A DNA stretch of 11,556 nucleotides from positions 1-11,556 of IMG/VR virus record IMGVR_UViG_2713897055_000008; one strand, written 5' to 3'. The notes below the pieces were generated by a model. The model was given only the letters and a program-made list of their open reading frames with translations. It did not search any database and was not told the origin of the DNA. Made by a program: the position numbers and the translations under genes. Of the stretch, positions 153 through 848 are shown one piece after another; the first letter of the stretch is position 1, and every line of letters begins with the position of its first letter. Origin of the DNA: a virus. Its lineage: Duplodnaviria; Heunggongvirae; Uroviricota; Caudoviricetes.

Positions 153-167
153 TCGTCGAGCCCGGCG

Positions 168-491
168 AACGGTAAAAGTATCACTCCCGATGATGTGCGT
201 CCGATGCTTGAGCAGATGGTGAAGGAGGCGGTAAGCCATATTCCTGTTCCGCGCGACGGTCGTGACTATGATCCAGATGTTCTGCAGAAGGCGGTGAATG
301 ATGCGGTCGCAAATATTCCGCAGCCGGCAGACGGTAAAAGTATCACCCCGGATGATGTGCGTCCGATGCTTGAACAGATGGTGAAGGAGGCGGTAAGCCA
401 TATTCCTGTTCCGCGTGATGGTCGTGACTATGATCCCGATGTTCTGCAGAAGGCTGTTCTGGATGCGGTGAGTGCCCTGCCGGCTCCGCAG
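168..491 (+). repeat. Direct tandem duplication, 2 x 162 bp (168-329 and 330-491), about 93% identical over the first ~125 bp of each unit
   Basis: Read directly: acggtaaaagtatcac...gatgttctgcagaaggc occurs twice at a 162-nt offset, in frame with the CDS. Confidence 0.85.
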
Positions 492-848
492 GATGGGCGT
501 GATGCCACTGCACTGGAAATACTCCCTGCCATTGACGATCAAAAATCCTTTCCCCGGGGCACGTATGCCACACACCAGGGCGGACTCTGGCGGGCGTATG
601 AAAAAACGCACGGGATGCGGGGATGGGAATGCCTGGTTGACGGGGTGGCGGATATTGACGTCAGCATGACGGGTGAACGGTTGTTCTCTGTGGTGGTCCG
701 GCAGAGCAGTGGCCAGCGTACGGAAAAAACATTTTCCCTGCCGGTGATGCTCTACCGCGGTGTGTTCAGAGCCGGTGAAACCTACCACCCCGGCGATACG
801 GTGACGTGGGGGGGGCTCGCTGTGGCACTGCAACAGTATGACCGGTGA
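195..848 (+). CDS. Repeat-containing phage structural protein of unknown function (54-aa tandem repeats; start uncertain)
   Basis: Frame-3 ORF ending at a double stop TGA-TAA (846-851). Contains two near-identical 54-aa units ([43 protein letters not shown]...) plus a degenerate third. First possible starts are GTG 195 or ATG 204, neither with a clear Shine-Dalgarno; repeat homology runs upstream to ~160. Confidence 0.5.
   Translation: MRPMLEQMVKEAVSHIPVPRDGRDYDPDVLQKAVNDAVANIPQPADGKSITPDDVRPMLEQMVKEAVSHIPVPRDGRDYDPDVLQKAVLDAVSALPAPQDGRDATALEILPAIDDQKSFPRGTYATHQGGLWRAYEKTHGMRGWECLVDGVADIDVSMTGERLFSVVVRQSSGQRTEKTFSLPVMLYRGVFRAGETYHPGDTVTWGGLAVALQQYDR

Follow-up and report, generated by a model that had tools for sequence, protein, structure and literature searches.

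A tandem-repeat reading frame before a head-tail connector gene as the probable 3' remnant of a conserved prophage gene

The left end of the virus record IMGVR_UViG_2713897055_000008, a stretch of 11,556 nucleotides (nt) that we refer to as the window, raises the question of how a repeat protein could be translated when the homology between its repeats begins upstream of every start codon available to it. Directly before the gene of a gp6-like head-tail connector lies an open reading frame (ORF) that carries an in-frame tandem repeat of 54 amino acids (aa), or 162 base pairs (bp). The frame opens at position 153, following an in-frame TGA, and its earliest in-frame starts are GTG 195 and ATG 204, neither of which is preceded by a GGAGG-like Shine-Dalgarno sequence upon inspection of the window sequence. 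An initial annotation of this DNA had described the repeat, the stop, the two starts and the position before the connector gene, and these descriptions held: the repeat was recovered by a repeat search, by Tandem Repeats Finder (TRF) and in translation, the stop and the starts are as described in the sequence, and the connector gene is in synteny with that of the relatives. The annotation had further proposed that a duplication copied leader sequence into coding sequence, that the TGA is read through, or that an upstream start was lost. The last of these is essentially correct. As compared to its relatives the gene lacks ~154 N-terminal codons including the ATG, and ORF 195-848 is very probably a mechanical ORF lying within what remains of the 3' part of a conserved prophage gene that we call gene X.

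The left edge of the repeat

The direct repeat has a period of 162 nt, with positions 162-307 matching 324-469 at 91% identity in the repeat search; TRF delimited it to 162-454 (period 162, 1.8 copies, 93% matches, 0 indels, score 530). Each 54-aa unit is made of two related half-units with the pattern DG+D..P..V....V..AV..IP.P, a structure that is also visible as a 15-nt sub-repeat at spacings of 63 and 99 nt. The left edge of the repeat homology, position 162, coincides to the base with the breakpoint of two unrelated DNAs. When window 1-1300 was searched, all 5,426 complete E. coli genomes matched some part of it; all 95 matching phage records began exactly at window base 162, and the prophage matches in ~1,240 E. 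coli genomes likewise began there, among the matches listed. To the left of this base lies the 3' part of rpsD, the E. coli gene for ribosomal protein S4. At the junction rpsD reads ...GTCGAGC and continues with TTTACTCC..., the phage gene reads ...ATTGCTGTA and continues with CCGGCGAAC..., and the window passes from ...GTCGAGC directly into CCGGCGAAC..., forming a clean breakpoint with at most a possible single C of microhomology.

The rpsD fragment begins at the second base of codon 149 and breaks off after the first base of codon 203 out of 206, 14 nt short of the gene end. Tested as the end of an rpsD gene, window 1-161 proved near-identical but neither complete nor in frame, and hence a fragment. 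Its best identity among the complete genomes is 99.4%, with 161 window bases standing against 162 bases of the record: one G of GATGGAAGG is gone, placed by alignment at window 89/90, and this deletion is private to the window (0 of the 5,426 genomes). The S4 reading frame shifts at the deletion, being frame 3 before it and frame 2 after it. The upstream frame-3 ORF thus consists of S4 followed by ~20 out-of-frame codons that run to the TGA at 150-152, which shares frame 3 with the repeat ORF.

Homology that extends upstream of any start can signal recoding, and programmed recoding occurs in phage structural genes, in the form of frameshifts (lambda G/GT, T7 10A/10B) and of stop-codon readthrough. 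The window superficially resembles such systems in that coding homology crosses a stop or enters another frame; it differs from them in having no conserved slippery site or stop context, and in that the upstream sequence is a fragment of an unrelated host gene. According to the readthrough proposal, the upstream frame-3 ORF is extended at its C-terminus by the repeat protein, and the TGA is indeed in frame, with the frame open on both sides of it. However, that ORF is rpsD and lies in frame 3 only due to the 1-bp deletion, the last 20 codons before the TGA are out of frame, the arrangement occurs nowhere else, and the relatives have phage coding sequence here with no stop. We therefore rejected a readthrough or recoding extension, the chance of which we regard as negligible, and the frame-3 ORF was dropped as a source of the repeat protein. 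In the truncation that we favor instead, phage DNA starting in the middle of gene X abuts unrelated rpsD at 161/162, and the repeat homology thus reaches the junction, 5' of any usable start. A gene truncated where unrelated DNAs meet is an ordinary phenomenon, and unusual translation is not required.

Gene X in intact relatives and its remnant in the window

Gene X is ORF59 of phage BP-4795 (YP_001449296.1; PHROG 1289), and it also makes up the C-terminal part of PHROG 2271 ("portal protein"). Intact relatives have it as a gene of its own, coding for 245-461 aa; in BP-4795 the 461-aa ORF59 lies 3' of ORF58, the portal gene. The ATG of X overlaps the portal stop (ATGA) at the DNA level in three E. 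coli loci (BP-4795, 05-3629 and 10153), one Klebsiella and one Serratia locus, and, by called gene coordinates, in a contig from the Logan metagenomes. In Erwinia, a short gap separates X from the portal gene before it; one count gave the overlap in five of the six split loci examined, Erwinia being the one with a gap. At its other end X terminates in a stop that overlaps the start ATG of the gp6-like connector gene in the Klebsiella, Erwinia and Logan loci and in the E. coli relatives. The N-terminus is equally regular, with 25 of 26 aligned homologues (at least 8 genera) beginning M(N/T)(E/D)RE. This start, as M(N/T)(E/D)RE(L/I/M), is found in proteins of 350-405 aa from Klebsiella, Raoultella, Pantoea, Cronobacter, Kosakonia, Enterobacter and Serratia, and E. 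coli proteins have it too.

The window copy is 94-99% identical in amino acid sequence to BP-4795 ORF59 and its homologues over the retained part, and it shares with ORF59 the 54-aa repeats, the C-terminal domain and the position directly 5' of the head-tail connector gene. It differs from this family in lacking the first ~154 codons, in having two repeats as compared to 4-5 in the closest relatives, in being frameshifted at 808, and in abutting rpsD rather than a portal gene. A four-repeat gene X in an E. coli prophage locus is 1,224 nt long (6539-7762 of that locus), and the phage DNA of the window starts 462 nt into it. What is missing is the start, the N-terminal helix and the first two repeats, and the remnant amounts to ~62% of the gene, its 3' part. 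In agreement, residues 3-223 of the window product match positions 608-828 of 859 in the profile phrog_2271 (E = 5.7e-151), and the product matches positions 139-297 of 331 in phrog_1289 (E = 1.3e-121); the portal domain PF04860 has no match in the product of window 153-845. The M(N/T)EREL N-terminus with its ATG overlapping a portal stop is absent from the window copy, which is therefore a fragment of X and not a full member of the family.

The number of repeats in intact X varies, as the initial annotation had anticipated: five in BP-4795, four in three E. coli prophages, three in Klebsiella and Serratia, and one in a 245-aa E. coli variant, next to the two in the window. The same annotation took the duplication to be recent, which does not agree with an array that is longer and conserved across genera. 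By these comparisons, the two repeats in the window are the residue of that longer array rather than the outcome of a recent duplication. A recent duplication that copied non-coding leader into the coding region would leave two 162-bp copies, the first starting before any start codon, as is seen here. However, the unit is coding in all relatives, in 3-5 copies in the intact E. coli, Klebsiella and Serratia genes, and the DNA preceding the first copy is foreign and not a leader, so that we give this explanation hardly any weight.

The 3' end of the remnant is also altered. The window has one more G in a G-run than the relatives examined, and this extended allele, scored as a 100% match over 770-860, is present in only 3 of the 1,238 genomes carrying the segment. 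Since the additional G at 808 frameshifts the conserved C-terminus, the ORF stops at 848 and not at 924. In frame 1 the sequence still codes for the near-invariant tail GGSLWHC...W.LA.KRGRD, as far as a TGA at 922-924; this native stop overlaps the ATG at 921 of the connector gene, and it is reached only in frame 1, after the additional G. The conserved ~140-aa C-terminal domain is thus divided between frame 3 (486-807) and frame 1 (809-924), and the insertion breaks this domain in addition to the truncation at the other end of the gene.

Could the shortened frame nevertheless yield a protein with a function of its own from GTG 195 or ATG 204? There is an open frame of 217 codons, and short versions of X occur naturally, for example the 245-aa variant with one repeat. 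However, the natural short versions are shortened by loss of repeats and retain the M(N/T)EREL N-terminus, the near-invariant C-terminal motif does not survive the frameshift at 808, and neither a Shine-Dalgarno sequence nor, within window 1-1300, a sigma-70-like promoter was found. No homologue starts at the equivalent of 195-204; all extend upstream in frame and read through the equivalent of 153-204. Homologues with a start and a ribosome-binding site at that place, which in the initial annotation would have spoken against its proposals, were looked for and not seen, and the relatives present a third situation in which the gene simply continues upstream. We consider a functional truncated protein highly improbable. 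Since the remnant has no native start, ribosome-binding site or promoter-like site, it is most likely unexpressed. Its would-be product is a fragment of an already known and widely annotated prophage gene, and the window itself adds nothing new in this respect.

The annotation of X in its relatives is inconsistent. In RefSeq the portal and X pair of E. coli 05-3629 and 10153 is given as one "phage portal protein, frameshifted", and the Klebsiella X is called "phage portal protein" or "gp6-like head-tail connector protein". In E. coli STEC1588, portal and X are fused into one intact 861-aa "portal protein"; the portal domain PF04860 occupies residues 54-382 of this fusion, and the window ORF corresponds to its residues ~630-850. 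The fused allele differs by one extra G in a G-run near the portal end. Using an 81-nt probe for the fused allele and a probe for the split allele (at least 99% identity, complete genomes), we found the split allele in 336 genomes and the fused allele in 4. The "portal" name of X is inherited from such rare fusions, and the widespread label "phage portal protein, frameshifted" in RefSeq/PGAP is probably a systematic annotation artefact of the rare fused allele. We also considered a programmed -1 frameshift from portal into X, for which BP-4795 offers the sequence CTG AAA AAA TGA, and rejected it, since the alleles have no slippery heptamer in common and the sequence preceding the ATGA varies among Klebsiella, Serratia and other E. 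coli alleles. The portal/X boundary looks like ordinary translational coupling of two genes.

The head module in which X resides has an unusual order, with a 642-645-aa fusion of an S78 prohead protease and an HK97-type capsid protein located upstream, and not downstream, of the portal gene. In E. coli a conserved 73-aa ORF (phrog_829) lies between this fusion and the portal gene. In several close relatives a porin gene annotated as ompC is inserted within the tail gene cluster, following the minor tail gene (14530-15138 of one relative locus, L002); this insert is absent from the window and from STEC1588.

Predicted architecture of the intact protein

Intact X is composed of a long N-terminal helix, a stalk of 1-5 tandem 54-aa helix-loop repeats, and a conserved beta domain of ~140 aa. 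The AlphaFold2 (AF2) model of a full-length homologue was poor, with a predicted local distance difference test (pLDDT) score of 53.8, and we used only its secondary-structure pattern: a long N-terminal helix, alternating helices of 13-17 residues and loops, and the beta domain. The C-terminal domain modelled well from an alignment of 72 sequences (pLDDT 93). A profile of this domain (the last ~144 residues) retrieved 6,824 clusters at 50% identity with E <= 1e-3, and 523 with E <= 1e-30; among the matches listed, the domain is almost always C-terminal, in proteins of 200-500 aa. The stalk appears to be exchangeable, and in other members of the family it is replaced by collagen G-X-Y repeats (P0213) or by ~25 copies of a 27-aa repeat, PEPEPLPDI..MV..AV..I (P0231).

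Foldseek comparison of the C-terminal domain model pointed to tail fibres of Agrobacterium phage 7-7-1 and to chitin deacetylases with tandem CBM12 (carbohydrate-binding module family 12) domains, with E values of ~1e-2 to 1e-3, and the matches in BFVD were phage proteins with collagen repeats and ChiC_BD domains. The Pfam family CBM_5_12 (PF02839) scored below its gathering threshold of 26.2 bits for the window product (13.9 bits) and for an intact E. coli relative (18.7 bits); one member of the X family (P0352) passes it with 29.5 bits, and precomputed Pfam assignments list PF02839 for many X homologues. The motif Y-x-x-G-D-x-V-x-W-x-G-S-L-W is conserved in the domain, and the likeness to CBM5/12 modules (PF02839; PDB 2d49, 2rts, 1ed7 and 1aiw; Vibrio chitin deacetylase, 4ny2) lies in a conserved motif. 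With ~140 aa, the domain exceeds one CBM5/12 module and possibly represents two modules with a beta-hairpin insert. Judging from the models, the fold is putatively CBM5/12-like. A search of PDB sequences gave only weak matches, to designed helical-repeat proteins (E ~ 0.007), and NCBIfam gave no meaningful match for X.

An anchor helix, an exchangeable variable stalk and a small tip resembling a carbohydrate-binding domain together make up the architecture of a phage fibre, and the collagen and CBM fibre matches in BFVD liken X to phage fibres tipped with such modules (Pa193 gp47, 9b45; Agrobacterium phage 7-7-1, 9rkv). Intact X is probably a trimeric, virion-associated fibre, the reach of which would be set by the number of repeats and the tip of which would bind carbohydrate. 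If so, slippage of the repeats would tune the reach of X. That the gene lies between those of portal and connector points to attachment on the head or close to the neck. Since the portal C-terminus faces the capsid interior, the occasional in-frame fusion of X to the portal C-terminus cuts against a location on the outside. More tentatively, and with doubt about the whole, X may be a distinct and widespread phage fibre, mis-annotated and translationally coupled between the portal and connector genes, that binds glycans through a variable stalk and tandem CBM5/12-like modules and is attached at the portal/neck or on the head. We found no study of the X protein in the literature; a fibre-like protein whose repeat stalk varies and whose tip resembles a carbohydrate-binding domain apparently remains uncharacterised.

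The junction and other features of the window

Downstream of the junction the window is phage DNA. Positions 162-11556 match, in one piece and at 98.6% identity, a prophage of E. coli STEC1588, the closest relative, from which they differ by 148 substitutions and 6 indels; identity to the long-tailed Shiga toxin (Stx) phages BP-4795, 2851 and YYZ-2008 is 95-98%. The junction itself is present in none of the 5,426 complete E. coli genomes, and no copy of the 33-mer spanning it turned up in IMG/VR, in JGI metagenome contigs or in GTDB, represented by one genome per species. The exact products of 3915-5831 and 204-848 have no entry in the gene-position index either. In the alpha operon the essential gene rpsD immediately precedes rpoA.

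A 1-bp deletion (-A at 5822) breaks the tape-measure gene into two parts, 3915-5831 and 5924-7180; none of the 643 complete genomes carrying the segment has this deletion. The missing C at 10357 is another private single-base indel of the window. The deletions in the tape-measure gene and in rpsD suggest sequence-quality problems in the window. A further 1-bp deletion relative to the closest relative lies at 2404, in an intergenic region 5' of the major tail gene; as a result, a GTG-started ORF at 2388-3173 (261 aa) looks longer than the annotated major tail subunit of 238 aa. With private indels in the window, one of them in a fragment of an essential gene, other observations of odd frames in this DNA deserve suspicion.

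We believe that the junction is rather likely to be a chimera produced in a low-quality assembly or read, because it is absent elsewhere, because the window carries private 1-bp indels, and because a break in the only rpsD copy should be inviable. Three points weigh against the account given here. The window begins inside rpsD, and the call of an artefact is based on absence elsewhere and on the pattern of indels, not on reads. The allele with the additional G at 808 is also found in three finished genomes, so some of the indels may be no sequencing error. Lastly, fusions of portal and X exist, in STEC1588 and in a distant protein of 1,237 aa (P0231), and "separate gene" is the rule and not an absolute.

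It is also possible, though we think it rather unlikely, that the junction is biological, in that a real rearrangement, by deletion or illegitimate recombination, joined the 3' end of a spare rpsD to a decaying prophage, and gene X would then be a 5'-truncated and frameshifted pseudogene. Prophages of this type are often degraded, and in the closest relative the head-closure gene is interrupted by a stop codon; the G-run variant at 808 recurs among finished genomes, and a 7-bp indel at 10394 is a natural polymorphism. In addition, the rpsD segment occurs in 5,475 places in the 5,426 complete genomes, with a few genomes holding 2-3 copies. Against this stand the absence of the junction from the complete genomes and from every collection scanned, the private frameshift in the rpsD fragment, and the further private 1-bp indels; and if the fragment came from the sole rpsD copy, the break would frameshift rpsD and sever it from rpoA, which should be lethal. 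The interpretation of ORF 195-848 is the same whether the junction is a chimera or real. Positions of the features discussed are collected in Table 1.

Table 1. Features of the left end of the window and of the corresponding region in relatives
Feature	Position	Strand	Basis or remark
3' fragment of E. coli rpsD (30S ribosomal protein S4)	1-161	+	rpsD match in 5,425 of 5,426 complete genomes
"In-frame TGA"	150-152	+	rpsD codons CAC CTG ATC (His-Leu-Ile) read out of frame; no gene's own stop
Breakpoint of rpsD DNA and phage DNA	161-162	.	three-sequence side-by-side comparison
54-aa repeat unit, ending ANIPQ	162-323	+	equivalent to unit 3 of 4 in the closest intact relative
54-aa repeat unit, PADGKS...LDAVSALPA	324-485	+	last unit of the array
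Mechanical ORF, GTG 195 to TGA 846-848	195-848	+	217 codons; does not represent a native gene
Start of the conserved C-terminal beta domain of X (~107 codons)	486-807	+	frame 3; alignments, phrog_16748 and phrog_1289 matches, AF2
G-run with one extra G as compared to the relatives examined	802-808	+	insertion at 808
Rest of the conserved C-terminal domain, ending ...GGSLWHCNSMTGDKPGEAHSSGWTLAAKRGRDAGGGK and stop	809-924	+	frame 1
gp6-like head-tail connector gene	921-1247	+	downstream neighbour fixing synteny
S78 prohead protease-HK97-type capsid fusion	28-1965 in one relative locus (L003); equivalents in L001, L005, L006, L008		outside the window
Portal/X boundaries of relatives	L001 6495-6580; L007 9891-9970; L003 3499-3579		outside the window; two-gene form versus RefSeq label

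Rfam and tRNA scans of the window gave no match. A second set of repeats lies in a gap of ~900 nt that extends from the tail assembly gene I (8864-9508) to gene J, a gap that is unannotated in RefSeq relatives and contains only short ORFs. Here, at 9596-10351, a unit of 47-84 nt is present in three to four copies ~220 nt apart. The core of this repeat, GAAATGTGAATAAAyTCAGAATTTTTATTCAC, contains a 9-bp inverted repeat (GTGAATAAA / TTTATTCAC).

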